DNA of 64,000 bases, from the NCBI GenBank assembly GCA_013697705.1, contig JACCWJ010000004.1, forward strand, positions 30,938 to 94,937. The letters run 5' to 3'. This DNA is from Gammaproteobacteria bacterium. Lineage in GTDB: Bacteria > Pseudomonadota > Gammaproteobacteria > UBA6002. The notes below the pieces were generated by a model that saw nothing but the letters and a program-made list of their open reading frames with translations, ran no database searches and was not told the DNA's origin. A program made the position numbers and the translations under genes. Shown one piece after another: positions 8,894 through 64,000 of the stretch; the stretch's first letter is position 1, and every line of letters starts with the position of its first letter.

Positions 8894-10180
8894 ATGCCTC
8901 GATTAATTGCAGCTAAATTAATTGTAAAAGTGCTTTATGAGAAAAGATCGTTATCTCAACTACGCTCTGAAATAGCTAAATTATCGCAGAAAGAGAAGTC
9001 CTTAGTGCAGGAACTTTGTTATGGCGTAATCCGTTGGTATTTTCAACTGAACTTCATCATCAATCAATTTATAAAAAAACCTTTAAAAAGCAAAGACCGG
9101 GATATTTATGCGCTTTTGTTAGTCGGTGTATACCAAATTTTATATACCCGCATCCCAGATCATGCCGCGCTCTCGGAAACAGTAAATGCTACTAAAAAAC
9201 TTAATAAAGAATGGGCGGCCAGCTTAGTTAATGCGGTACTGCGTAATGTTCTGAAACAGCAAGGCACGATTATGAGCAAGCTAGCAAAGAATGAAGAAGC
9301 TTTTTACGCTCATCCAGAATGGTTTATCACTCAAATTAAAAAAGACTGGCCAACATGGCAAACCATTTTAAAAACGAATAATGAGCATCCGCCCCTTTGT
9401 CTCCGAGTCAATAAACTAAAAATCTCTCGGGAAAATTATCTGAATTTGTTGCAGGAAAAGCAGATTGACGGAAGAGGCCTTCCTCACACCAACTCCAGTA
9501 TTTTTGTTAATCAAGCTGTAGATGTAAGAGAATTGCCCGGCTTCTATGAAGGGCTGATCTCAGTGCAAGATGGTTCCGCGCAATTAGCGGCTGAATTATT
9601 AGCACCGCAAGCCAATGAGCGAATTCTAGACGCTTGCGCGGCGCCTGGTGGGAAAACTTGTCACCTGCTTGAACTTCAACCTCAACTCAAAGAATTAATT
9701 GCTCTAGATGACGATTCCCAAAGGCTTGAAAAGGTCAGAGAGAACCTGGAGCGTTTGCATTTAACAGCCACTATTATTTGCCAAGATGTTTTGGCATTAG
9801 ATGAGTGGCAGAAGAATTATTTTGATCGAATTCTTCTGGATGTTCCTTGTTCGTCTACGGGGGTCATTAACCGTCACCCTGACATTAAAATTCTTAGAGA
9901 ACCTTCCGATATCACAGCATTAAGTAAAACGCAGTACGCTGCCTTAAACAGCCTCTGGCCCTTATTGAAACGAGGGGGGGTGTTACTTTATGTCACCTGT
10001 TCGATTTTCCCAGAAGAAAACGAAAACGTCGCGAGCCGCTTTATTGAGGAAACTCTCGACTGTAACGAAGAAAAAATAGAGGCCGCATGGGGAGTACCAG
10101 TGTCAGTGGGTAGACAGGTACTCCCCGGTATGCAGCTAGGCATGGATGGGTTCTACTTTGCAATGTTAAAAAAAGTATAA
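8894..10180 (+). CDS. rsmB: 16S rRNA m5C967 methyltransferase RsmB (Sun/NOL1/NOP2 family)
   Basis: NusB-like N domain, SAM motif DACAAPGGKT, catalytic motifs DVPCSSTG and TCSIFPEENE; 428 aa. Confidence 0.8.
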   Translation: MPRLIAAKLIVKVLYEKRSLSQLRSEIAKLSQKEKSLVQELCYGVIRWYFQLNFIINQFIKKPLKSKDRDIYALLLVGVYQILYTRIPDHAALSETVNATKKLNKEWAASLVNAVLRNVLKQQGTIMSKLAKNEEAFYAHPEWFITQIKKDWPTWQTILKTNNEHPPLCLRVNKLKISRENYLNLLQEKQIDGRGLPHTNSSIFVNQAVDVRELPGFYEGLISVQDGSAQLAAELLAPQANERILDACAAPGGKTCHLLELQPQLKELIALDDDSQRLEKVRENLERLHLTATIICQDVLALDEWQKNYFDRILLDVPCSSTGVINRHPDIKILREPSDITALSKTQYAALNSLWPLLKRGGVLLYVTCSIFPEENENVASRFIEETLDCNEEKIEAAWGVPVSVGRQVLPGMQLGMDGFYFAMLKKV

Positions 10181-10198
10181 TCCTATAAGAATACGCTA

Positions 10199-10636
10199 TT
10201 AATCTTTGATTCGTACGGCCAACACATCACATTTCGCACCATGTAATACTGCATTTGCGGTAGAGCCTAATAATAGTTGCATCCCATGACGTCCATGACT
10301 ACCCACTATAATCAGATTAATACCTAGATGCTCGGCTTCTTCCAGAATAAGCGCTTTAGCAGGGCCGACTTTAATATGCTGCTTGGCTTCGGGTACTTCT
10401 AGCTTTTTACCTATCTTAATCATTAATTCCTTAGCATTTTCCAGCAACATTTCTTCGATATCTGCGCCAGCAGCCACCCCATAAGCGGCTCCGTAGCTAC
10501 TCAAATGTTCTATAGCATGTAACAGGTAGATCTCGGCGTTAAATTCCTCGGCCAACATTTTAGCTTTTGCAACGGGTAGGTCATCACATTTTGTATCCAG
10601 TTCCACTGCTAATAAAATTTTACTGTACTTTTTCAT
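10199..10636 (-). CDS. uspA: Universal stress protein UspA family
   Basis: M-KKYSKILLAVELD..., IIVGSHGRHG and C-terminal GSTANAVLHGAKCDVL ATP-binding motif; probable start is the internal ATG at 10636 (RBS ggatgagg upstream) rather than ORF-track start 10660. Confidence 0.8.
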   Translation of the reverse strand: MKKYSKILLAVELDTKCDDLPVAKAKMLAEEFNAEIYLLHAIEHLSSYGAAYGVAAGADIEEMLLENAKELMIKIGKKLEVPEAKQHIKVGPAKALILEEAEHLGINLIIVGSHGRHGMQLLLGSTANAVLHGAKCDVLAVRIKD

Positions 10637-10809
10637 AGCCTCATCCCTTGTATTTAACAATTAAAAATATATCACAAGCACATGAACAGCCATAGCTTTT
10701 GAGCAGTTAAACTTAAAATAAGGGTTGTGTGAAAACGGTTAACTTCCTGTTATTTTACTGTGCGAGAACTAGGTTGCTTTTAAAGACCCTGAAATTATAC
10801 AGAGTTAAA

Positions 10810-10965
10810 CAGTTCTATCCCCAGGCTTATCCACACTCTCATAGGCTCAGATATTCTGTTAATGTATTAATTTTACTATGTTTTTCCAGGTTACCCACAT
10901 TAATAGGCCTCCTTAATAACCACAACTAAGTAATTAATTTAATTACTATTATTATTAATAATGCG
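10810..10965. promoter_or_regulatory. DnaA-box cluster plus AT-rich tract upstream of rpmH (oriC/ars-like or rpmH regulatory region)
   Basis: Perfect TTATCCACA at 10827-10835, 8/9 box TTACCCACA at 10891-10899, 7/9 boxes at 10814-10822 and 10915-10923; 40-nt >90% AT run 10925-10965; dnaA itself absent. Confidence 0.55.
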
Positions 10966-11058
10966 TTGGGGTTTTTATTTTTTTAGTGAATTTCTAGTTG
11001 AAAAATTATTAGCTCCTGTTATCCTTGGCTGTTTGATTTCGAACTGAAGAGAATCCCC

Positions 11059-11193
11059 ATGAAAAGAACCTTTCAACCCAGCAATTTAAGGCGTAAACGT
11101 GTCCATGGTTTTTTGGCTAGAATGGCTACTGCCAATGGTCGCAAGATATTAAAGAACAGAAGACGTAAAGGTCGCAAAGTATTAAGTGCTTAA
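11059..11193 (+). CDS. rpmH: 50S ribosomal protein L34
   Basis: 44-aa [47 protein letters not shown], textbook L34; not in ORF track because <60 aa. Confidence 0.95.
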
Positions 11194-11551
11194 ACCGAAA
11201 AAGTTAGAGAAGGATTCTAGACTTGCAGCCGCTGAGAGCTTTCAAAAAGTATACCGTAATGGGCGAAAATTCCGCCATCATGGTATCAGTGTCTTAGTAT
11301 GTCAGAATGAACTAGCTCATTCCCGGATTGGAATTAGCGTCGCCAAGAAGCAAGTGCCACGAGCAGTAGATCGTAATAGAATCAAGCGCATCGTCAGAGA
11401 AAGCTTTCGACTGAGACGAGATGATTTAACGGCCAATCTAGATATGGTGTTCTTGATTTATTCCACGCTGTTAGAGCTAAGTAATCACGAGATACAATTA
11501 TGTTTGGACTTTTTGTGGACAAAACTAATAAGTTTTTACAAAAAAGTATAA
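11186..11551 (+). CDS. rnpA: RNase P protein component
   Basis: GTG start overlapping rpmH stop; basic 121-aa protein with RNR-motif region [11 protein letters not shown]; canonical rpmH-rnpA linkage. Confidence 0.85.
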
Positions 11552-11781
11552 TTTTCGGTTTAAAAATTTATCGCTATACCCTAAGCCCCATGCTTGGGCC
11601 ACGATGCCGCTTTTACCCAAGTTGTTCGCAATACGCTATCGAGGCTTTAACTAACTGTGGCCTTATCAAAGGTAGTTATTTAATCGTACGACGTTTGTTA
11701 AAGTGTCATCCTTTTCATCCGGGCGGATATGACCCGGTCATTAGTTCGCATAATTTTTGTACCACGCCACAACCGAAGTAA
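11500..11781 (+). CDS. yidD: Membrane protein insertion efficiency factor YidD
   Basis: [26 protein letters not shown]...[13 protein letters not shown] matches YidD signature; start ambiguous (ATG 11500 or GTG 11515), overlaps rnpA 3' end. Confidence 0.8.
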
Positions 11782-11787
11782 TTAAAT

Positions 11788-13464
11788 ATGTATGATCGAA
11801 AAATTTACCTTTATTTTGCTTTAGCCATTACGGGTTTCCTACTTTGGACCGCATGGCAGAAAGATTACGCTCCAAAACCCCAAGTCGCAGCACAAGTTGC
11901 CCCTTCGGCTATTCAGCCTGTTTTAACTCCTGCAGCTCCAGGAAGTGTGACAACGGGAGAAAAAAATCCTCAAGACCGTTTTATTCAAGTGAAAACAGAT
12001 GCGCTTGATATAAAAATCGATAAAGTTGGGGGAAATATTGTTTCTCTTAAATTACTAAAGTACCCCGTAGCGTATGAAACTCCGCAAATTCCAGTCAGTT
12101 TGTTAACGGATGACACGGCAAATTACTATGTTACCGAGAGTGGCTTCGATAGCAAGAATGGACTCGAAACGTCAAAGACGATGTTTGAATCACCCCAAAG
12201 TGTTTATCAGTTAGACCCAAATAAAGACGATTTAGCGGTAGACCTTACTTGGAAGGGAAATAACATCACAGTCAAGAAGACCTATGTCTTCAAAAGAGGT
12301 AAGTACGATATCAACCTTAACCATGCTCTTCAAAATAATGCAAATGAAGCGTGGCAGGGCAATCTTTTTGCACAAATTAAGCGACGTGGCCTCTCCGATG
12401 AAAACAACATCTTTGGTTTACATACTTATCGCGGAGCTGCTATTTCCAGTCCTGCAGATGTGTATGAAAAAATCAGTTACAGCAAGATGGATAAGGAAAA
12501 CTTAAATAGGGTTGTTAAAAATGGCTGGCTTGCAATGCAGCAACGCTATTTTGTGAGCGCCTTAGTTCCCAACCTTGCTGAGCCGCTCCAATATTTTAGT
12601 AGTGTGTCTTCTATAGGCCCTACCGATAAACCCGCTGATAAAATCTATACCATTGGTTTTAAAACACCTGAACTTACAGTGCCGCCGCACAGTGTAAAAA
12701 ACGTTGCCACAACTTTGTACTCTGGTCCAGAAATTGCCGATGTGTTGAAACAAGTAGCACCTAACTTGGATCGCGTCATTGACTACGGATGGCTCTCTAT
12801 TTTTTCTGTTGCCATCTTCAAAGTAATGGAGTGGATACATCAATTTGTTAAGAATTGGGGCGTCGCCATCATTTTAGTAACGGTCATGATTAAGTTACTT
12901 TTCTACAAACTTTCAGAAACGAGTTATCGGTCCATGGCGAGGATGCGCAATTTACAACCTCGTTTATTAGCCTTGAAAGATAAATTTGGCGACGATCGAC
13001 AAAAATTAAGCCAAGCGACCATGGAGCTTTACAAAAAAGAAAAAGTAAATCCTTTGGGCGGTTGCTTGCCCATGGTCATACAGATCCCAGTGTTTATAGC
13101 ACTCTACTATGTGTTAATAGAAAGTGTCCAACTAAGACAAGCGCCCTTTATTTTTTGGATACATGATTTATCGGTAAAAGATCCCTTCTACGTTCTTCCC
13201 ATATTGATGGGGTTGAGCTGGATGATGCAACAAAAACTGAATCCGCCTCCGCCAGATCCTGTTCAAGCAAAAATGATGATGCTGTTTCCGGTCGTATTTA
13301 CGGTTTTATTTGCCACCTTCCCTGCAGGGCTAGTGCTCTACTGGATTGTAAATAACTGTTTATCTATTTTGCAGCAGTGGTACATCATGCGAAAGGTCGA
13401 AAATGAAGGCAAAAAATCGTTGCCGAAAACAAAGACAAAGACTCGAGTAAGCAGTAGTCGATAA
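11788..13464 (+). CDS. yidC: Membrane protein insertase YidC
   Basis: 558 aa, N-terminal TM, large periplasmic domain, C-terminal 5-TM core and lysine-rich tail; rnpA-yidD-yidC-mnmE synteny. Confidence 0.92.
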   Translation: MYDRKIYLYFALAITGFLLWTAWQKDYAPKPQVAAQVAPSAIQPVLTPAAPGSVTTGEKNPQDRFIQVKTDALDIKIDKVGGNIVSLKLLKYPVAYETPQIPVSLLTDDTANYYVTESGFDSKNGLETSKTMFESPQSVYQLDPNKDDLAVDLTWKGNNITVKKTYVFKRGKYDINLNHALQNNANEAWQGNLFAQIKRRGLSDENNIFGLHTYRGAAISSPADVYEKISYSKMDKENLNRVVKNGWLAMQQRYFVSALVPNLAEPLQYFSSVSSIGPTDKPADKIYTIGFKTPELTVPPHSVKNVATTLYSGPEIADVLKQVAPNLDRVIDYGWLSIFSVAIFKVMEWIHQFVKNWGVAIILVTVMIKLLFYKLSETSYRSMARMRNLQPRLLALKDKFGDDRQKLSQATMELYKKEKVNPLGGCLPMVIQIPVFIALYYVLIESVQLRQAPFIFWIHDLSVKDPFYVLPILMGLSWMMQQKLNPPPPDPVQAKMMMLFPVVFTVLFATFPAGLVLYWIVNNCLSILQQWYIMRKVENEGKKSLPKTKTKTRVSSSR

Positions 13465-16749: not shown

Positions 16750-17385
16750 ATGAATGAAAAGAATTCATTATTAACAGTGCTTGATGCTGGACTAAATGAA
16801 TTGGGCATAAAATTATCAGACATTGATCAAGAAAGATTACTGTTTTTTATTTCCCTGCTAATCAAATGGAATAAGGTCTATAACTTAACCGCTATTGTCC
16901 AGCCTGAAGCAATTATTCAGCGTCATCTTTTGGATAGTCTCAGCATTACACCTTATATTCGGGGCAAAAAAGTTCTAGATGTTGGTTCAGGCGCAGGTTT
17001 GCCTGGAATACCTTGTGCCTTAGCCCTACCCGCCCAGGATTTTACGTTGCTTGACAGCAATGGCAAAAAAACGCGTTTTATGACCCAGGCGGTTGCAGAA
17101 TTACAGATGAAAAATGTAGAGGTTATACAATCCAGAGTAGAGGATTATCACCCCAAGCAATATTTCGATACTATTTTAGTAAGAGCATTCTCCTCTATTG
17201 AGAATATTTTGTTACAAACAAGACACCTACTTTGTGCAGGCGGCGAATTACTTATTATGAAGGGTATTTATCCGAGTGCAGAGCTGCAAAATATAAACAA
17301 CCATGTTAAAGTTCACAAATTACTAGTTCCTGGGCTCAACGAACAGCGACATTTAGTCTGTATTAAAGGATCTCTTGATGGGTAA
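16750..17385 (+). CDS. rsmG: 16S rRNA m7G527 methyltransferase RsmG (GidB)
   Basis: SAM motif VLDVGSGAGLPGIP; mnmG-rsmG-parAB context. Confidence 0.88.
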   Translation: MNEKNSLLTVLDAGLNELGIKLSDIDQERLLFFISLLIKWNKVYNLTAIVQPEAIIQRHLLDSLSITPYIRGKKVLDVGSGAGLPGIPCALALPAQDFTLLDSNGKKTRFMTQAVAELQMKNVEVIQSRVEDYHPKQYFDTILVRAFSSIENILLQTRHLLCAGGELLIMKGIYPSAELQNINNHVKVHKLLVPGLNEQRHLVCIKGSLDG

Positions 17386-18184
17386 TGTTATAGCTGTTGC
17401 TAATCAAAAAGGGGGGGTTGGAAAGACCACCACCTGTGTCAATCTTGCAGCATCGCTTGCTGCGACCAAGCGGAAAGTTTTACTGGTTGATCTAGATCCT
17501 CAAGGCAATGCTTCCGTTGGCAGTGGAGTGCGTCCACTCGAAACATCCCCTACTATGAATGATATTTTAATAGGTGAAGCGGATGTAGCTGGGGTCAAGG
17601 TAATGGCGCCGGCGGGATACGAGGTGCTACCTTCTGATAATAGTTTGACTGTGGCTGAGGTCCGCTTGCTTAAGCAACAAAGACGTGAATTTCTGTTAAA
17701 AGAAAGCCTTAGTTCAGCAAAAAACGAGTATGACTATATCATAATAGACTGCCCTCCTTCGCTAAATATGCTGACCGTCAACGCCCTAGTCGCTTGTGAT
17801 TCTGTATTGATTCCTATGCAATGTGAATATTATGCAATGGAAGGTCTTGCGGGATTACTAAGCACCATTGAACAACTGCGTTATTCAGCTAACCCAACCC
17901 TGGAATTGGAAGGGTTGCTAAGGACAATGTTCGATGGAAGAAATCGATTGGCGATTGAAGTATCAGATCAACTAGTCAGCCACTTTGGCGAAAAAGTATA
18001 TCAAACAGTCATCCCACGAAATATTCGTCTGGCCGAAGCGCCCAGCCATGGCCTGCCCGTTTTATTGTATGACAATAAGTCTCAAGGAGCGGCTGCCTAC
18101 CTTGCTTTGGCAGGAGAGATTGTTCGCAAACAAACTAAAACGTCGGCTATTAATCAAAGACAAGAGGTTGAGTATGACAGTTAA
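17375..18184 (+). CDS. parA: Chromosome partitioning ATPase ParA/Soj
   Basis: Deviant Walker A KGGVGKTT, 269 aa. Confidence 0.9.
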   Translation: MMGNVIAVANQKGGVGKTTTCVNLAASLAATKRKVLLVDLDPQGNASVGSGVRPLETSPTMNDILIGEADVAGVKVMAPAGYEVLPSDNSLTVAEVRLLKQQRREFLLKESLSSAKNEYDYIIIDCPPSLNMLTVNALVACDSVLIPMQCEYYAMEGLAGLLSTIEQLRYSANPTLELEGLLRTMFDGRNRLAIEVSDQLVSHFGEKVYQTVIPRNIRLAEAPSHGLPVLLYDNKSQGAAAYLALAGEIVRKQTKTSAINQRQEVEYDS

Positions 18185-19070
18185 GAAGAGAGGATTAGGA
18201 CGAGGTCTTAGTGATCTTGGATTAAATGAATTACTTAGCCGTATGTCGACAGAGGTAAAAGTTGTTGACACCCCAAGTAGCGAAGCTGATAAGCACCCTG
18301 AACTAAAAAACTTGGATCTTGACGCTATTCAGCCTGGAAAATATCAGCCTCGAAGAGATATTGATGAAAAATCTTTGCAAGAATTAGCTGAGTCAATCCA
18401 ATCTCAAGGGATTATTCAGCCCATTGTAGTGCGTAAAATTGCAGCAAAACGCTATGAAATTATTGCTGGCGAAAGGCGGTGGCGTGCGGCAAAAATTGCC
18501 GGATTAAAAGAAATCCCGGTCATAGTAAGAGACATCCCTGATGAAGCTGCCATAGCAATGGCCTTGATCGAGAATATCCAAAGAGAAGATTTGAATGCAA
18601 TAGAGGAAGCGATTGCCTTACAAAGATTAAGCCAAGAGTTTTCATTAACACATCAAGAGATAGCGACGATAGTGGGCAAGTCGCGAGCAACAATCAGTAA
18701 TTTATTGAGGTTATTAACCCTTCCTTCTGAAATAAAGTTGATGGTGGAGAAAGGCGAGATCGAAATGGGCCATGCACGAGCACTATTGTCCCTCGATGAA
18801 GAACGCCAGCTACAAGTAGCAAAACAGATTAACTTAAAAAAATTATCCGTGCGAGAAACCGAGCTCTACATTAGACGCCTTTTAAATCTTTCTGATATCC
18901 CTATTCCTGTCGAAAAAGATGTAAATTTGGCTCGGATCGAAAAGACATTAGCTAAACATCTGGGTCTGAGAGTCACAATAAAGGCAAAGGATGAAAACAA
19001 GGGCAAGTTAATTGTGCATTATAAAAATAGTGACCAATTACATTCGATTTTGGAGCATTTTGAGGAATAA
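18174..19070 (+). CDS. parB: Chromosome partitioning protein ParB/Spo0J
   Basis: MTVKKRGLGRGLSDL N-terminus, GERRWRAA ParB box, HTH; true start is ATG 18174 (11-nt overlap with parA); ORF-track start 17985 is over-extended. Confidence 0.88.
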   Translation: MTVKKRGLGRGLSDLGLNELLSRMSTEVKVVDTPSSEADKHPELKNLDLDAIQPGKYQPRRDIDEKSLQELAESIQSQGIIQPIVVRKIAAKRYEIIAGERRWRAAKIAGLKEIPVIVRDIPDEAAIAMALIENIQREDLNAIEEAIALQRLSQEFSLTHQEIATIVGKSRATISNLLRLLTLPSEIKLMVEKGEIEMGHARALLSLDEERQLQVAKQINLKKLSVRETELYIRRLLNLSDIPIPVEKDVNLARIEKTLAKHLGLRVTIKAKDENKGKLIVHYKNSDQLHSILEHFEE

Positions 19071-56899: not shown

Positions 56900-57625
56900 A
56901 TGCGAATTTCTCGATTCTATTACAATGGTCCATTAAGTAAAGATACCATTGTTAAGCTTTGCGAAGAAACTAGCCATTACATACTGCATGTTTTGCGCTT
57001 AAAGGTAGGGGCGAAAAGCGTATTGTTCAATGGTGATGGTAAAGATTATCTTGCAATACTGACGGACTGCTCCAAAAAAATAGTCACCTTAGAGATACAA
57101 GAGTCCATTAATGTTCATAAAGAGTCGCCGCTTAAAATTCATTTAGTCCAGGGAATTTCACGGGGTGAAAAAATGGATTGGACGATCCAAAAAGCAGTCG
57201 AGCTCGGGGTGACAGAAATCACGCCTATTATCACAGAGCATTGCTCTATTAAACTGGATGCAAGTCGCAGAGAAAAGCGTTTAGTGCATTGGCAAAAGAT
57301 TATGGTTAGCGCGTGTGAGCAATCGGGTCGTAGCAGCCTGCCCTCGCTAAATCCCATTGTTCAATTTGAGGACTGGATTTATCATCCCAGGCAGGAGATG
57401 AAATTATTCTGCGATCCTAACAGTAGCCAGCGCTTGTCTCATCTTCCCGCTGCACAAGAGATATTACTCATTATTGGTCCCGAAGGCGGTTTATCAAACA
57501 ATGAAATTTCTCTGGCGAACAAATATAACTTCACCGGTATCTCTCTTGGTCCTCGAATTCTTAGAACAGAAACGGCCGCAGTGTCTGCTATAAGTGTTGC
57601 TCAAGCGTTGTGGGGCGATCTATAA
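56900..57625 (+). CDS. rsmE: 16S rRNA m3U1498 methyltransferase RsmE
   Basis: 241 aa; N-terminal PUA-like domain, SPOUT C-terminus with GPEGG motif (IIGPEGGLS). Confidence 0.85.
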   Translation: MRISRFYYNGPLSKDTIVKLCEETSHYILHVLRLKVGAKSVLFNGDGKDYLAILTDCSKKIVTLEIQESINVHKESPLKIHLVQGISRGEKMDWTIQKAVELGVTEITPIITEHCSIKLDASRREKRLVHWQKIMVSACEQSGRSSLPSLNPIVQFEDWIYHPRQEMKLFCDPNSSQRLSHLPAAQEILLIIGPEGGLSNNEISLANKYNFTGISLGPRILRTETAAVSAISVAQALWGDL

Positions 57626-57727
57626 GGCGAGTCATTCAATTCAATTCTGTGGGAAATTCGCGATTGCAGTTGTAGTCTATATGCTTGTTAGGGATTATTT
57701 ATTCAATTAATTTGGCCTAATAAAATA

Positions 57728-57769
57728 GCTAAATGATTGATTCTAAATGATTGATTCTAAATGATTGTT
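57728..57769. repeat. Three tandem copies of a 14-bp unit (ctaaatgattgatt x2 + ctaaatgattgtta)
   Basis: Read directly; lies in 450-bp non-coding gap upstream of candidate sRNA. Confidence 0.8.
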
Positions 57770-57904
57770 AAATTCACAGGTATTTTTCAATACTGTAATT
57801 TTTACTTTGGTATCTTGTAACTCTAGCTGATTGCATTAGAGTGCCCATGGAATTGGGACGGAGTGGCTAGGATAGCAGCATAAGCATTTGCTTGTGGTAG
57901 ATAC

Positions 57905-58025
57905 CAAATGGAAATTTATGGTTTGCTCAGGGAGTGAGAGCTAAGCAAAGGAGTGTTGTGTCAGTTTTCAGGCAAGGATTGCCTGGAGGGGGCGGTTGAT
58001 CATTCAATTGCCTCCTTTTTTATTT
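57905..58025 (+). ncRNA. Candidate CsrA/RsmA-sequestering sRNA (CsrB/RsmY/RsmZ-like): five GGA motifs, stem-loops presenting GGA, strong terminator
   Basis: GGA at 57910, 57931 (gcuc-AGGGAguga-gagc), 57950 (CAAAGGAGUG), 57976 (ggca-AGGAu-ugcc hairpin), 57985; terminator stem 57985-58015 (ggcgguug/caauugcc, G-U wobbles) + U8 at 58016-58023; no ORF; 5' end uncertain. Confidence 0.45.
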
Positions 58026-58076
58026 AAAACTAGCTTTTCAGTGTTCATTTTGTACAATAACTCTTTCCCCTAAGTT

Positions 58077-58472
58077 TTGAGTTGTTTTATGACAGATTGG
58101 ACCTTTCTTATTCCTCTCTTCGGTCGTTTCTTACTTGCTTCTTATTTTTTAAAAGCAGGGATCAACAATGCACTTCATTGGCACAAAGTCTTAGGCTTAA
58201 TTAAATTCAAGAAAATTCCCTTTCCTAATCTAGTCTTATTTGCCGTAATTGCCACGCAAATTGTAGGCTCGCTGGCTATTATTTTTAATTATTACGCTGT
58301 CATTGCCTCGATTGCCTTAATTATTTTTACCTTGGTCGCTAATTTTTTAGTGTGTAATTATTGGAAAATGGAGGGAGTACAGCGCAGAAATGTCTCTTTT
58401 ATCTTTTACGCTAACATTGCAGTAATAGGTGCATTATTGCTTATTACTTCTATGGCGCCTGGAATTTACTAA
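58077..58472 (+). CDS. DoxX-family inner-membrane protein
   Basis: 131 aa, four TM helices, WTFLIPLFGRFLLASYFLKAG N-terminal pattern typical of DoxX; start may be ATG 58089. Confidence 0.7.
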   Translation: MSCFMTDWTFLIPLFGRFLLASYFLKAGINNALHWHKVLGLIKFKKIPFPNLVLFAVIATQIVGSLAIIFNYYAVIASIALIIFTLVANFLVCNYWKMEGVQRRNVSFIFYANIAVIGALLLITSMAPGIY

Positions 58473-58642
58473 TGCAGAAACGTTTTATAGCAGGTGCGAT
58501 GTGCCCTGCCTGCAAATCACTTGATAAAATTTGTTTGGAAAAATTACCCACAGAGCACAGGGTGGAGTGCGTTAGTTGTGGATATACAGATACTCGACTC
58601 TTAACACCGATGACTGATAACTTAAATGGGACTCCAAAATGA
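58472..58642 (+). CDS. YheV-family zinc-ribbon protein (DUF2387)
   Basis: 56-aa ORF MQKRFIAGAMCPACKSLDK...VECVSCGY with two CxxC pairs, aligns with E. coli YheV (KRFIAGAKCPKC...VECVKCGH); start overlaps DoxX stop, stop overlaps next start; missed by ORF track (<60 aa). Confidence 0.65.
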   Translation: MQKRFIAGAMCPACKSLDKICLEKLPTEHRVECVSCGYTDTRLLTPMTDNLNGTPK

Positions 58643-59427
58643 AAAAAATATTAATAGGCCTCTTTCTTGTTTCGTCAATGCAATGTGCTCTGGGATATAA
58701 CCCCCAAGATTTGAAAAGACTGCAGGAAACTTGCAGCTGTCCAGGCGGGGATTTATCAAATGCTAACCTTTCAAACTTCAAATTAGGCGATAAAAGCACG
58801 CTAAATATTCAGAAAGTAAAGATGGATAATAAGGGTTTCATTATCTGTAACATTTCAAACGCGAATTTTTCAGGCGCAAATCTACAAAATGCTTATTTCA
58901 GCCCATCGGATTTCGGGCCGGGAATTCATGAAAAAGTGGGCCAGATTATTATGCAACGAACCAATTTTAGTCGGGCAAATCTAGCGAATGCACATTTAAA
59001 CGCCGTTATGAGCGACTATGCTAATTTCGAAAATGCTAATCTCAAAAACGCAACTATTATGAAGGGAGCTTCTTTTAAAAACTGCAATTTTAGCCATGCT
59101 CAAATGAACAATATTTCAGTTTCCCCTCCTATGGGTGGTTGTGGTGCTATGTTTACTTTCAGTAATTTTTCACATGCTAATTTAATAAACAGCAAACTTA
59201 ATGCCGATTTCACCCAAGCAAATTTCAGCTTTGCAGATTTGATGAAGGCACAACTTACCCCTTGCGATGAAGATCCTAAGAATAGCTTTAAAGGCACAAA
59301 TTTTTTGAGTGCTAATTTAACGGGAACGACTTTTAATAATGAAAATCTAACTGAAGATCAGCTTATTAATGCAAAGTTATGCCATACAAAATTATCAAGC
59401 AGTATCAGTAATCGGGATTGTCAATAA
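58639..59427 (+). CDS. Secreted pentapeptide-repeat protein
   Basis: Signal peptide MKKILIGLFLVSSMQCALG; >30 tandem A(N/D)L/F-xx pentapeptides (ANLSN FKLGD ... ANLQN AYFSP ... ANLAN AHLNA ... ANLKN ATIMK ...). Confidence 0.85.
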   Translation: MKKILIGLFLVSSMQCALGYNPQDLKRLQETCSCPGGDLSNANLSNFKLGDKSTLNIQKVKMDNKGFIICNISNANFSGANLQNAYFSPSDFGPGIHEKVGQIIMQRTNFSRANLANAHLNAVMSDYANFENANLKNATIMKGASFKNCNFSHAQMNNISVSPPMGGCGAMFTFSNFSHANLINSKLNADFTQANFSFADLMKAQLTPCDEDPKNSFKGTNFLSANLTGTTFNNENLTEDQLINAKLCHTKLSSSISNRDCQ

Positions 59428-59441
59428 CTGAGATTTGGGAG

Positions 59442-59473
59442 GTCCTGGGTGACACGCGATGTTATTCCAGGAC
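59442..59473. other. Hairpin (gtcctgg ... ccaggac) between convergent pentapeptide-repeat gene and PNP gene; possible bidirectional terminator
   Basis: 7-bp stem with 18-nt loop followed by acgtttt on + strand; weak. Confidence 0.3.
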
Positions 59474-59480
59474 ACGTTTT

Positions 59481-60338
59481 CTAGGTGCAGACATCAGAAT
59501 CTACTTGCCGATTCGACACGGTAATTTTATTAATCAGTGCAATAATTAATTGACTTAAGTCTTCAGCCGCCATCTTTGCAACTCGCAGAACATTCTCATG
59601 TGTTAGGAATTCATCGCTCATTCCTACCGCCATATTCGTTATCGTTGAGATCGCTAACACTTTCATATTACAGTGCCTGGCAATAATAACTTCGGGTACG
59701 GTAGACATTCCCACCATATCCGCGCCCATAATTTTAAATGCCCGAATTTCTGCTGGGGTTTCATAACACGGTCCTAACGTAGCGAGGTATACGCCCGTCG
59801 AAATATTGATATTGAGTTCAGAAGCAGTTTGAGAAGCTATTTCCATGAATTCACTATCGTATGCATTTTGTAAAGAAGGGAAACGGGGACCAAAAGAGTC
59901 ATCGTTAGCGCCTACCAAGGGATTTTGAAACTGAAAATTAATGTGATCACTAATTAATACCAAATTACCCGGAGTGACTTCCTTTCTGAGGGACGCCGCA
60001 GCATTGGTTAAAATGATAGACTCGCAGCCGAGAAGTTTTAAGGTGCGAATAGGCGTTGAGATAGCAGCGCTATTCTTCCCCTCATAGGAATGCGAACGAC
60101 CTTGAAGACATGCAATTGGCACGCCATTGAGTAATCCTAATATTAAATTACCTTGGTGCCCAGCGACGCTCGTATCACTAAACCCGGGAATTTCACTATA
60201 GGGAATAACTATAGGGTTATTGAGCATGTCTGCAAGTTTGTTTAGGCCTGAACCTAACACAAGGGCCAATTGAGGCGAGAATTTGCCAGCACGTTTTTTA
60301 ATTAACTCTGCTGCTTGATGGGGAGAAGTAATATTCAT
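59481..60338 (-). CDS. Purine nucleoside phosphorylase (PNP/MTAP family, PunA/XapA type)
   Basis: 285 aa; LALVLGSGL, phosphate-binding HSYEG, MSTVPEVI motifs. Confidence 0.85.
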   Translation of the reverse strand: MNITSPHQAAELIKKRAGKFSPQLALVLGSGLNKLADMLNNPIVIPYSEIPGFSDTSVAGHQGNLILGLLNGVPIACLQGRSHSYEGKNSAAISTPIRTLKLLGCESIILTNAAASLRKEVTPGNLVLISDHINFQFQNPLVGANDDSFGPRFPSLQNAYDSEFMEIASQTASELNINISTGVYLATLGPCYETPAEIRAFKIMGADMVGMSTVPEVIIARHCNMKVLAISTITNMAVGMSDEFLTHENVLRVAKMAAEDLSQLIIALINKITVSNRQVDSDVCT

Positions 60339-60617
60339 TCATTTTTTTCGTATAGGTTATGAAAGGATCAGTTTTAAATTTTACGGGACCTGCAAAAGCA
60401 CGCAAATAATCCCATTTATTTCCTGTCTTATCAAGAACCTTTCTGTAGTCTAGTTAAATACAACTGTGCATTATTAAAAAAAAGAAGTCATTGCCGCTTA
60501 ACCAGCAGCCCGTAGACCTCATTTTTAACAGATTATACAGCTATAATTTTCTAAAGGGCTGTTATTAATGAGACGGAGCTCATGGCTATCTCAACGATTA
60601 CACTAAGGAGGTTGATT

Positions 60618-61073
60618 ATGAAAACCACCTGGATCTTAATTGCTAACGCGAGTGAAGCTCGATTATTTCAAGCAGAAAAAGTCACAAAAAAGATATTGCT
60701 CATCGATGAATTTTTCCATCCTGCCAGCCGCAAAAAAATTGCGAGTCTAGTCACTGACGTGCCAGGTCGCTATCGTAAATCGACCTCTACCCCGCTCAGC
60801 TCTTTTGAAGAGACATTTAATCCGAAGCAAGCAGAAGCCCTGCGTTTTGCGCGTGAATTAGCTGAAAAGCTCAACCTAGGGAGAGCCACTAATCGTTATA
60901 CTAATCTTATTCTGGTAGCGCCGCCTCATTTTCAGGGCTTGTTGAATAAATGTTGCAATCACCATGTAAAAAATCTAATTAGCAACACCCTCGATAAAGA
61001 TTACACAAAAATAAGAGAATATGATTTGCCGCATTACCTTAATGGCAAGCTATCATTTCGCAATGCCGCGTAG
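60618..61073 (+). CDS. Host-attachment protein family (PF10116-like)
   Basis: MKTTWILIANASEARLFQ N-terminus typical of this family; strong RBS aggagg 8 nt upstream of ATG 60618 (ORF-track start 60582 over-extended); ~151 aa. Confidence 0.5.
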   Translation: MKTTWILIANASEARLFQAEKVTKKILLIDEFFHPASRKKIASLVTDVPGRYRKSTSTPLSSFEETFNPKQAEALRFARELAEKLNLGRATNRYTNLILVAPPHFQGLLNKCCNHHVKNLISNTLDKDYTKIREYDLPHYLNGKLSFRNAA

Positions 61074-61133
61074 AGAAACGTTGACTCTAGATTACTAACT
61101 ACCGGGCAGGTTTTTAGTGCTAATAGTTACAAC

Positions 61134-61661
61134 TTACGTTGTAACTTGATGGGCCTGCAAACTGTCACCCGCGTTATTTTCTAAGAAATGCACAGTGGTT
61201 CCTATGCTGAGCTCTGCAAAAGGAACTTGGAGAACATTTGTTTCGTGAAAATAATATTCATTGCCCTCTGAGGTTTCAATGAATCCATAATCGGGAAACA
61301 AACGCACTATTTTGCCGGTAAGTTGCAGTTGGTGACTTTTAGTGGCACCTCGCAAAATATCGACGTAATCTTCTAGTTGGCGTTTCATCGCATTAAACGA
61401 ATCACGAATTGCCACATACAAATCTTCATTGCGATGACTGTGACGATTTACTACTAGCACTTTACCGGGGACATCAACTTCAATATTAACTTGAAATTCT
61501 TTTCCTTGATGTTTGTTTTTTTGTGGCGCTTCAACCACAACTCGACAGTAAATGATGCGATCATATAAATGATGTAGTTTTTCAGCTTTTTGCCTGATTT
61601 TGGTGTCAATTGCTTCGGTGTGCTCAATGTCGCGAATAGTAATTTCTAATGGTAATTGCAT
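61134..61661 (-). CDS. hpf: Ribosome hibernation promoting factor (HPF/RaiA, S30AE family) fused to C-terminal cold-shock-domain-like module
   Basis: N-terminal 105 aa align with E. coli HPF (MQL.I...TEA....KLHHLYDRI..VVV...DLYVAIRDSFNAMKRQL); C-terminal 65 aa TGKIVRLFPDYGFIETSEGNEYYFHETNV...GTTVHF resembles CspA fold pattern (G.V..F...GFI....G...FH...V). Confidence 0.7.
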   Translation of the reverse strand: MQLPLEITIRDIEHTEAIDTKIRQKAEKLHHLYDRIIYCRVVVEAPQKNKHQGKEFQVNIEVDVPGKVLVVNRHSHRNEDLYVAIRDSFNAMKRQLEDYVDILRGATKSHQLQLTGKIVRLFPDYGFIETSEGNEYYFHETNVLQVPFAELSIGTTVHFLENNAGDSLQAHQVTT

Positions 61662-61700
61662 AATAACCCCTTCTTATAATTGTCTTAACTTTTTAGCTCA

Positions 61701-62156
61701 TCAATGTTTTAAAATATTAGGGTGCACTAATTTTTCGAAATCTTTATAAGACATCTTTATTAGCTCCGTATGTTTTCCTCCACTAAAAGCAATTTGATCA
61801 TCCTTAGTTAATTTCTCTGAGACATACACGTCCATATCGTACAAATTACCAAACGGGGGCACTGCGCCCACTTCGCAATCTGGAAATTTATCTTGAAATT
61901 CAGATTCGCTTGCTAATTCTATTTTCGAGCCTTTTAAGAGCTCTTTCAAGGATTTTAAATTCACTCTTTGATGTGCGGGTTCAACCACCATTGCAAATTT
62001 ATCATCTACTTTAATAATGACTACTTTTGCAAGATACTTACCAGAAATGTGACAATTAGCGGCAATTTCTGGTGCAGTATAGGCCGGTGTATGCTGAATT
62101 ACTGAATAATTAACATGATTTTTATCTAAAAAATCTTTCACAATATGTTTAGCCAT
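61701..62156 (-). CDS. YbaK/ProX-type aminoacyl-tRNA deacylase domain protein
   Basis: 151 aa; conserved ...YTAPEIAANCHISGKYLAKVV...VGAVPPFG pattern of YbaK/EbsC family. Confidence 0.65.
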   Translation of the reverse strand: MAKHIVKDFLDKNHVNYSVIQHTPAYTAPEIAANCHISGKYLAKVVIIKVDDKFAMVVEPAHQRVNLKSLKELLKGSKIELASESEFQDKFPDCEVGAVPPFGNLYDMDVYVSEKLTKDDQIAFSGGKHTELIKMSYKDFEKLVHPNILKH

Positions 62157-62195
62157 TGTAGTGACCTCCTGTAAAAAGAGAGCTACTTACTCATA

Positions 62196-62879
62196 TTATA
62201 GCTTTATTTTATCAGAGCTTCTTTTGAATGATTCAACGCTATCTGGCGTGGACATAAGTATTACATCTGCAGGCCGATGCGCAAATAAGCCATTATCAAC
62301 AACGCCTGTGATTGTTTTGATCTCATCTTCTAATTTCAAAGGTTCCATTATTTTCAAATTATAGACGTCGAGAATGATATTGCCATTATCGGTAATGCAT
62401 CCTTCACGATAAACTGGGCTACCACCCAATTTTACCAGTTGCCTGGCCACATAGCTTCTTGCCATGGGTATAACTTCGACAGGGACGGGACAATCAACAC
62501 CCAACACCGAAACTCTTTTCGACTCATCAATAATACAAACAAATTTTTTGGCTACTGTGGCAATAATTTTTTCACGCGTCAGTGCACCTCCGCGACCTTT
62601 GATAAGGTAGAAATAATCATTGACCTCATCAGCGCCATCCACATACAAAGCTACTTGATCAACTGTGTTTAACTCAAATACAGGAATGCCAAATTTTTTC
62701 AGCTCATTTTCAGTGGCTTTAGAACTTGCAATGGTGCCTTCAATTTGATGTTTAACCTTGGCGAGGGCCTCAATAAAATACTGGACTGTAGTTCCTGTCC
62801 CTACGCCTATGATGCCCTCTTCAGGGAGATATTGAAGCGCAGCTTCAGCCGCTTTTTTTTTCATTTCGTTGGCATTCAT
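62196..62879 (-). CDS. rpiA: Ribose-5-phosphate isomerase A
   Basis: [23 protein letters not shown] motifs; 227 aa (start may be ATG at 62864). Confidence 0.9.
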
Positions 62880-62897
62880 ACAGGTGTCCTTATCGTG

Positions 62898-64000
62898 TTA
62901 AGAATAAATTCCAGCTTGTTTTAACAGAGCTTCCACAGACGGTTCACGTCCTCTAAATGCAATGAAAAGTTCCATAGGATCTTTTGCGCCGCCCTGCTCT
63001 AAAATATTTTCCATAAATGATCGTCCAGTTTCTTCATCGAAAATACCCTGCTCCGTAAATTTTGAGAAAGCGTCGCTTGAGAGAACTTCTGCCCATTTGT
63101 AACTATAATATCCCGCTGCGTATCCCCCAGAGAAAATATGAGAGAAGCCATGTTGAAAACGATTAAACTCTGGAATAGGAATGACGCACACTTGTTCGCG
63201 TGCTTCATCTAAAAATCGTTGTATTTGTTGTTCTTCTGCTTCATTGAAAAACATATGTAGGTGGAAGTCAAAAATCGCAAATTCAAGTTGTCGCACCATT
63301 TGCATGGCTGAATGAAAATTACGAGCTCGAATCATTTTGTCGAACAAATCTTGCGGCAGTGCCTCACCTGTTTTGTAATGACAGGCCATTAAATCAAGTG
63401 CAGGTTTTTCCCAGCACCAATTTTCTAAAAACTGACTCGGTAGTTCTACGGCATCCCATGGTACACCATTGATTCCAGAGACTTCAGCATAATCAATCTT
63501 GGTGAGCAAATGGTGTAGTCCGTGGCCAAATTCATGAAACAGTGTTTGCACATCGTCATGCGTAAAAAGAGCAGGGTCACCGCCGACAGGTCGGTTAAAA
63601 TTACAGGTTAAATAAGCGATAGGCGTTTGAACGTGCGAGTTAATGAGCCGCCTAACGCGACACTCATCCATCCAGGCGCCGCCTCTTTTGTTGGGGCGTG
63701 CATATAAGTCCAAATAAAATTGTCCACGAAGTTCGCCATCTTGACCGTAAATATTAAAAAATTTAACATCGGGATGCCAAACTTCTACTCCTTGTACTTC
63801 ATGGATAACGATACCAAATAACTTATTTACTATTTTGAAAAGGCCTTGCACGACTTGATCTTCGGGAAAATAGGGTCTGAGGTCTTCTTGTGAAATGTTG
63901 TAGCGGAATTCACGCAATTTTTCGCTGTAATAAGCAACGTCCCACGCAGCTATTTTTTCAATGGCGTATTTTTCTTTAACGAATCCATTGAGTTCATTAT
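62898..64000 (-). CDS. prlC: Oligopeptidase A (M3 family), C-terminal ~365 aa; gene continues beyond window end
   Basis: HEFGHGLHH zinc motif; hand translation upstream of ORF-track start (which is an internal TTG) continues ...AWDVAYYSEKLREFRYNISQEDLRPYFPE aligning with E. coli PrlC; open to position 64000. Confidence 0.88.
   Translation of the reverse strand, partial: NELNGFVKEKYAIEKIAAWDVAYYSEKLREFRYNISQEDLRPYFPEDQVVQGLFKIVNKLFGIVIHEVQGVEVWHPDVKFFNIYGQDGELRGQFYLDLYARPNKRGGAWMDECRVRRLINSHVQTPIAYLTCNFNRPVGGDPALFTHDDVQTLFHEFGHGLHHLLTKIDYAEVSGINGVPWDAVELPSQFLENWCWEKPALDLMACHYKTGEALPQDLFDKMIRARNFHSAMQMVRQLEFAIFDFHLHMFFNEAEEQQIQRFLDEAREQVCVIPIPEFNRFQHGFSHIFSGGYAAGYYSYKWAEVLSSDAFSKFTEQGIFDEETGRSFMENILEQGGAKDPMELFIAFRGREPSVEALLKQAGIYS

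Follow-up and report, generated by a model that had tools for sequence, protein, structure and literature searches.

Where does chromosome replication begin in a gammaproteobacterium that carries DnaA boxes upstream of rpmH and has its dnaA gene elsewhere? The question is raised by a 64,000-nt stretch of contig JACCWJ010000004.1 (the window), which derives from an uncultured lineage of Gammaproteobacteria. The 422-bp intergenic region between usp, a gene for a universal stress protein, and rpmH (10637–11058) contains an array of DnaA boxes, a predicted DNA unwinding element and the rpmH promoter. We conclude that this region is most likely the functional, DnaA-dependent chromosomal origin (oriC) of this bacterium, an origin of the rpmH-linked type whose initiator operon has been relocated by about 19 kb. 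The conclusion draws on the anatomy of the region, on its conservation among relatives and on a switch in strand composition across it. An initial annotation of the window had offered two readings, a vestigial or secondary origin or a DnaA-regulated promoter region. Of these, an origin is favoured, though not a vestigial or secondary one.

DnaA boxes and a predicted unwinding element upstream of rpmH

Five DnaA boxes with at most two mismatches occur within 130 bp (10795–10924), all in one orientation and abutting an AT-rich tract. The perfect box TTATCCACA (10827–10835, + strand) is the sole perfect DnaA box detected by pattern scan in the 64-kb window, and it is invariant in the window and in the related loci L084 and L002. 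The proximal box TTACCCACA (10891–10899, + strand, 8/9 matches) is located 64 bp from the perfect box and points to the unwinding element. It is the equivalent of E. coli box R1. Three weaker boxes (7/9, all + strand) complete the array: TTATACAGA (10795–10803) at the distal end, CTATCCCCA (10815–10823), which reads TTATCCCCA (8/9) in L084, and ATAACCACA (10916–10924). The initial annotation had listed one perfect box, one 8/9 box and at least two 7/9 boxes; reading of the sequence and pattern scans agree with this, the 7/9 boxes being three. By box score the region ranks as the top 422-bp segment of the 64 kb, with 0.5% of segments reaching its score.

The proximal box is separated from the AT-rich element by a 13-nt spacer (10900–10912) that ends in a G+C cluster, GGCCTCC (10906–10912). 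The predicted unwinding element (10923–10964) has a core (10931–10962) in which 31 of 32 bases are A or T. The AT run at 10925–10965 that had been reported initially is thus real (35 of 41 bases are A or T). The segment 10933–10962 is tied as the most AT-rich 30-mer of the window, and 10923–10962 ranks second among 40-mers. In an approximation of stress-induced duplex destabilisation (SIDD), 10923–10964 opens first and deepest within 9600–12100 at every superhelicity and in both salt settings. At 0.01 M salt its G(x) drops from 2.7 to about 0.1 kcal/mol between sigma values of -0.04 and -0.05, and at 0.1 M salt and sigma -0.06 it is the only site with a value below 3.

Directly after the spacer is a conserved element, TTAATAAC(C/A)ACAA (10913–10925, + strand), found in the window, L084 and L002. 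It contains the 7/9 box ATAACCACA and matches a motif, (A/T)TAATAA(C)AATAA, that occurs at this position in other lineages. The element may not be a true box but a DnaA-trio-like sequence with which the unwinding region begins. Two NAN triplets are in frame straight after the 13-nt spacer. Seven consecutive NAN triplets (CAT TAT TAA TAA TAA TAG TAA) are present on the minus strand (10963–10943) inside the AT tract, in a run that starts 43 nt from the proximal box; AT-rich sequence fits NAN easily.

The promoter scan placed promoters of both usp and rpmH inside the gap. The rpmH promoter (TTGAAA, 16 nt, TG-n-TATCCT; 10998–11025, + strand) fires away from the unwinding element, and its GTTGAAAAA...CCTGTTAT(C/G)CTT sequence is kept in three lineages. 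Also present is a 24-nt direct repeat with 71% identity (10730–10753 versus 10999–11022, + strand), which places a copy of the rpmH promoter core (TGAAAA...TCCTGTTAT) upstream of the box array. The block CTGTTATTTT-CTGT of the upstream copy is kept in L002. The match may be fortuitous, or this copy could serve as a second promoter from which transcription would cross the boxes and enter the unwinding element. A repeat search of the gap identified only two short two-copy repeats and no AT-rich 13-mer or 21-mer repeats. The gap contains zero GATC sites and no match to a Fis-like site.

Weigel (2025; bioRxiv 10.1101/2025.08.05.668638, section 2.2.12) sets out five criteria for the prediction of DnaA-dependent oriC. 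With respect to these, the gap has an unwinding element (by the SIDD approximation), a flanking gene, rpmH, that is transcribed away from it, and a contiguous box array, for which five boxes is the lowest number mentioned in that paper. The mandatory proximal box fits in orientation and distance (24–33 bp from the element) and has one mismatch to TTWTNCACA. The optional DnaA-trios take the form of the two in-frame triplets after the spacer and the seven deeper in the AT tract.

We infer from this arrangement how initiation would proceed. DnaA-ATP would bind the five same-oriented boxes (10795–10924), anchored on the perfect box and on the box at 10891. The DnaA oligomer would then extend over the 13-nt spacer into the AT tract at about 10923–10964 and open it, after which the helicase would be loaded and forks would leave in both directions in vivo. 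Transcription of rpmH away from the unwinding element may help opening.

Conservation among relatives and a switch in strand composition

Protein-guided retrieval identified ten lineages, including the window, with divergent usp and rpmH genes, the lowest Usp identity being 54%. At least one box with no more than one mismatch is present in the gap of all ten, a perfect TTATCCACA in nine, and the rpmH-proximal box is aimed at rpmH in every case. Over the ten lineages, 15 perfect boxes are found in 5.2 kb of gap sequence versus 11 in 149 kb of flanks (2.87 versus 0.074 per kb), a 39-fold enrichment (Poisson P ~3e-19). In L002, the closest relative, the two strongest boxes are both perfect TTATCCACA and have the same 64-bp spacing as in the window. 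The homologous proximal box is also a perfect TTATCCACA in several other lineages, and TTACCCACA is the proximal box in L004 and L094 as well.

Alignment of the window with L084 and L002 reveals conserved islands at the boxes at 10795 and 10815, the perfect box and the proximal box, and further islands at the TTAATAAC(C/A)ACAA element, the AT core and the rpmH promoter; the DNA between them has diverged. At the 10795 box, the block TTA(T/C)-ACA(G/A)(A/T)GTT is kept in both relatives. When all lineages are anchored on the proximal box, the order is the same: the box (often followed by GAAAA), a spacer of 12–13 nt, (A/T)TAATAA(C)AATAA, and 40–60 nt of AT-rich DNA. The spacer is relatively G+C-rich and has a G+C cluster at its end in most lineages, not in L002 or L006. 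Three to four NAN trios follow the spacer in L092, L095, L090 and L006. The signature of box, spacer and AT-rich DNA also occurs in L006, where dnaA is beside rpmH, and in a Pseudomonas rpmH-dnaA region (L016).

Strand composition was analyzed over a longer stretch. Using the FtsY of the window we reached a contig of the same organism, L082, that adds 8,768 nt leftward (window coordinates -8767 to 0). In the combined 72.8 kb of L082 and the window, the cumulative G-C curve has its global minimum at 10926, in the first bases of the AT tract. The general expectation for oriC is a distance of at most about 20 kb from the cumulative GC-skew minimum, and over these 72.8 kb the minimum falls on the predicted unwinding element. 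The left 19.7 kb is mostly encoded on the same strand as the right-hand genes (about 17 kb on the + strand), yet has the opposite skew. Therefore, gene orientation is not the cause of the switch. Per-gene regression with orientation as a covariate places the switch at 10.5–14 kb for all positions, and at 10.5–12.5 kb for GC skew at third codon positions (GC3 skew); the replication term for the latter is about 0.07. With the switch in the model, the residual sum of squares is one third lower than without it. Third-position skew is negative on their own coding strand for dnaA, dnaN, recF, gyrB, ftsYEX, rpoH and glyQS. Thus, these left-hand + strand genes have long been on the lagging strand, and the layout is old and not the product of a recent inversion.

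The same pattern was found in relatives. In L002, L084 and L004, which have divergent usp and rpmH and were analyzed with 10-kb flanks, the cumulative minimum is inside the gap. In L005, which has boxes upstream of rpmH without usp, it is at most 170 bp from the gap. L007 and L009 have no boxes upstream of rpmH, and they show positive skew to either side and no switch. Boxes and skew switch go together across relatives. The local skew of Pseudomonas L016 is weak and of opposite sign, and this locus was left out as a positive control. GC skew had been named in the initial annotation as a check on whether the region is a vestigial origin; the local minimum inside the gap, corrected for orientation and recurring in relatives, goes against that idea.

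Near 58.0 kb the cumulative GC skew reaches a maximum (57998) and starts to fall once more. Two facing 8/9 DnaA boxes, at 58544 (+ strand) and 58577 (- strand), are found in a 166-bp gap there. Genes past 58 kb are mostly on the minus strand and have housekeeping or unknown functions (including a pentapeptide-repeat protein, purine nucleoside phosphorylase and oligopeptidase A), and the skew of 57600–64000 is more negative than gene orientation alone predicts. This segment could be inverted or acquired.

Several relatives differ from the window in ways of their own. In L004 (metagenome-assembled genome (MAG) contig JAUIAD010000005.1), 12 perfect TTATCCACA boxes occur in 21.7 kb (1–21713) versus 0.23 expected, and nine of the 12 are outside the usp-rpmH gap, including within mnmG, rsmG and parB. 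Its gap is 993 bp long and contains, between the AT tract and rpmH, two copies of a GC-rich element of about 130 bp with internal inverted repeats. L083 and L085 (contigs of 1.7 and 1.3 Mb) encode Usp orthologues with 68–70% identity that are not beside rpmH; the neighbours are psd and an amino-acid permease in one and rsmB in the other. Only a subclade, therefore, has usp adjacent to rpmH, and from these contexts the rsmB-usp linkage looks older than the adjacency of usp and rpmH. L007 and L009 (the latter labelled Coxiellaceae) have neither dnaA nor a DnaA box in the 700 bp upstream of rpmH. These two lineages also have no skew switch there, and their origin must have been relocated. Evidently, origin position is labile in this part of the Gammaproteobacteria.

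Position of dnaA and comparison with known origins

We found no tblastn match to dnaA or dnaN in the window using DnaA and DnaN of a Pseudomonas locus as queries. The initial statement that dnaA is absent holds to this extent, but fails beyond the left edge: L082 encodes dnaA, dnaN, recF and gyrB (+ strand), three minus-strand genes, and then ftsY and the remainder of the window. The dnaA gene (L082 419–1792) encodes a 457-aa protein with all three Pfam DnaA domains (N-terminal, AAA+ and C-terminal). It shares the strand of rpmH and starts 19.4 kb before it, 8.3 kb past the left edge of the window, so that the boxes next to rpmH are not the orphans they had been taken for. Only 86 bp of intergenic DNA precede dnaA and 24 bp separate dnaA from dnaN, gaps that are too small for an origin. 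The dnaA gene has a perfect DnaA box of its own in the 86-bp gap (L082 346–354, minus strand), 65 bp before the ATG. A box at such a position upstream of dnaA is classical for dnaA autoregulation.

No other candidate origin was identified in this stretch. Among all intergenic gaps of at least 100 bp in L082 and the window (-8.8 kb to 64 kb, or -19.7 kb to +53 kb relative to the usp-rpmH gap), only the usp-rpmH gap contains a consensus DnaA box. The mnmE-mnmG gap is 12 bp long, and thus there is no room for a second origin of the Pseudomonas or E. coli type upstream of mnmG.

The gene context is otherwise as initially annotated. The usp gene (10199–10636, - strand, 145 aa; NCBIfam Usp matches, Pfam PF00582) is transcribed away from the gap. 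Its start is most likely the in-frame ATG at 10636, which is preceded by a Shine-Dalgarno-like sequence and gives the 145-aa form recorded in public assemblies. The TTG at 10660 that was proposed as the usp start gives way to this likelier ATG, and the gap of about 400 bp described at first becomes one of 422 bp. The rpmH gene (11059–11193, + strand; NCBIfam equivalog matches) is transcribed away from the unwinding element and is the first of a + strand run, rpmH-rnpA-yidD-yidC-mnmE-mnmG-rsmG-parA-parB, followed by the atp operon; NCBIfam matches bear out the naming of usp and of rpmH through parAB. Genes of the + strand up to 10180 are ftsY, ftsE, ftsX, rpoH, a DsbA-like gene, glyQ, glyS and rsmB. 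No tRNA or Rfam family was detected in the 64-kb window. Look-up of the protein encoded at 62196–62879 found no record.

As had been proposed, usp occupies the usual slot of dnaA, which is upstream of rpmH and divergent from it in about 64 of 80 related loci. In two Pseudomonas loci, glyS has the orientation that it has in the window and is located on the far side of dnaA-dnaN, about 8.5 kb upstream of rpmH. The simplest history would be that the dnaA operon, with its promoter box, left the glyQS-rpmH interval and the origin stayed by rpmH. On this history the origin in the gap would descend from the rpmH-dnaA origin common in gammaproteobacteria, with usp as its present flank.

The closest well-characterised relative of the gap is oriC1 of Pseudomonas and Halomonadaceae, in which rpmH, transcribed away, is followed by an unwinding element, DnaA-trios, box R1, an IHF site, further boxes and dnaA (bioRxiv 10.1101/2025.08.05.668638). 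For the rpmH-dnaA origin of P. aeruginosa and P. putida, the same preprint cites Yee & Smith (1990) and Jiang et al. (2006). The window has the array on the same side of rpmH, in the same minus-strand order (rpmH, AT tract, spacer, TGTGGGTAA, further boxes), and its rpmH, unwinding element and R1-type box can be aligned by eye with those of L016 and L006. It differs in that the far flank is usp and dnaA is 19.4 kb upstream on the rpmH strand, in its shorter array and weak IHF candidate, and in having no space for a second origin on the mnmG side. The gap thus falls outside the literal definition of oriC1 as the region between rpmH and dnaA; judged by its sequence, it would nevertheless work like oriC1 and appears positionally homologous to it on the rpmH side.

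E. coli oriC (mnmG/gidA-mioC, 42 kb from dnaA) is also an origin tens of kb from dnaA, with the oriented proximal box R1 by an AT-rich unwinding element and a flanking gene transcribed away. It differs from the window in occupying the slot upstream of mnmG and not that upstream of rpmH, and in having GATC-rich 13-mers and SeqA/Dam control, whereas the gap is without GATC. The basal unwinding system (Richardson 2016/2019, Pelliciari 2021; PMC8287927) comprises a box with at most two mismatches, a spacer of 0–16 bp (13 being commonest) and at least three NAN trios (PMC8287927). The window shares with it a box within two mismatches, a 13-nt spacer with a G+C cluster, an A/T-rich tract and triplet periodicity. 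Strictly taken, it departs from it in the NAN triplets close to the box (within 16 nt), of which two are in frame whereas the rule asks for three or more.

The autonomously replicating sequence (ars) of Coxiella burnetii appears to be the closest described rpmH-linked box cluster without an adjacent dnaA. This ars, reportedly described by Suhan and colleagues in 1994, is said to be beside rpmH-rnpA and to contain consensus DnaA boxes, an AT-rich region, three AT-rich 21-mer repeats, and no GATC. Like it, the gap adjoins rpmH-rnpA, has a consensus box and an AT-rich tract, and lacks GATC. In contrast, the window has no 21-mer repeats and has its skew minimum on the unwinding element, whereas the ars is reportedly not the in vivo origin. 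The C. burnetii gene CBU_1916 is presumably a neighbour of rpmH, judging by locus-tag order. It encodes a Usp paralogue (PMC11841066). ARS plasmids replicate in C. burnetii according to a second-hand statement (PMC10315504), and its oriC is said, also second-hand, to map to the gidA/rpmH region (PMC1470461).

The organism itself is not Coxiella, the genus of the initial comparison. Among one genome per bacterial or archaeal species, the best match to the YidC of the window (66% identity) is in the gammaproteobacterial MAG L002. The next matches (about 50%) are to MAGs labelled Coxiellaceae or Gammaproteobacteria, and Pseudomonas follows at 41–46%. Thus, YidC identity is at most 66% to any species representative, and the organism is only distantly related to Coxiellaceae MAGs (YidC identity about 50% or less).

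Alternative readings and implications

Several points weigh against a working origin in the gap. The array consists of few boxes (one perfect, one 8/9 and three 7/9), the proximal box TTACCCACA mismatches TTWTNCACA at position 4, and the DnaA-trios are not clean, two being in frame and the seven consecutive ones lying deeper in the AT tract. The SIDD values come from our own single-run approximation and not from the published SIST program. The IHF candidate (10860–10872) is weak, with a mismatch at a conserved C. We identified no match to the parS consensus TGTTNCACGTGAAACA with at most two mismatches in the 64 kb. The skew minimum holds only locally, over the 72.8 kb of chromosome in view. 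The left-hand + strand genes (about 17 kb; dnaA-dnaN-recF-gyrB, ftsYEX, rpoH, glyQS and rsmB), broken by three minus-strand genes and many of them essential, would be head-on to the leftward fork, which is unusual. In addition, the rpmH-linked ars of C. burnetii is reported to lack initiation bubbles in two-dimensional gels. As a separate observation on the partition genes, parA and parB are encoded at 17375–19070, 6–8 kb from the predicted origin, yet no such parS match is present in the window.

As the only serious rival, the gap could be a vestigial or secondary origin, a relic of the rpmH-dnaA origin that may still bind DnaA or replicate a plasmid while the chromosome fires elsewhere. That dnaA moved away and that the array is small would fit such a relic, as would the C. 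burnetii ars, which is said not to be the in vivo origin. The Weigel preprint also describes repeated 'downgrading' of the rpmH-linked oriC1 in Halomonadaceae (bioRxiv 10.1101/2025.08.05.668638). We nevertheless regard a relic as unlikely, given that the skew minimum is here and in three to four relatives, that boxes and unwinding element are kept over deep divergence, and that no other box-bearing intergenic region was found from -19.7 to +53 kb, the mnmE-mnmG gap being too short to hold one. The alternative that the boxes serve only to control transcription of rpmH and/or usp has a general basis, since DnaA is also a transcription factor that works at promoters with boxes. The genome provides a clear example in the perfect box upstream of dnaA, and promoters of both usp and rpmH are inside the gap. 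The boxes, however, precede the conserved rpmH -35 by 100–170 bp without any overlap, which counts against the regulated promoter proposed initially. Control of transcription explains neither an AT tract at a fixed distance from an oriented box nor the strand-composition switch, and as a sole function it is very unlikely.

More improbable again is a non-origin cluster of the datA or DARS type, which would titrate or recharge DnaA and tune the level of active initiator. A cluster of few boxes outside dnaA, with a weak possible IHF site, is what such a site would offer, but these sites need no unwinding element and are untied to the skew minimum, both of which are present here, and relatives have their rpmH-linked origin at the homologous position. 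From the window by itself, where the signal is modest, one might suppose that box-like 9-mers have come together by chance in an AT-rich promoter region: 2.7% of 422-bp segments contain at least five boxes with at most two mismatches. The 39-fold enrichment of perfect boxes over ten lineages and the conserved spacing and orientation effectively refute this, leaving chance with next to no likelihood.

A functional oriC in the usp-rpmH gap is of an ordinary chromosomal kind, in which a replication specialist would find nothing surprising; what is mildly interesting is that its separation from dnaA is conserved. For an uncultured lineage, the origin call helps to orient assemblies, to estimate growth rates from origin/terminus coverage and to supplement origin databases. 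As a case of an origin that stays with rpmH while dnaA has moved, it helps to distinguish, for origin prediction, whether an origin follows dnaA or follows rpmH. Tentatively, usp-oriC-rpmH may be the working origin across a broad, mostly uncultured gammaproteobacterial clade, with the initiator operon split off (head-on and about 17–19 kb away in the genome of the window, the only one in which dnaA was seen). The comparison also provides an argument on whether the rpmH-linked ars of C. burnetii is a real origin: if C. burnetii shares this layout, as it may, its ars, reportedly dismissed as an origin because of two-dimensional gels, would possibly be the true oriC.

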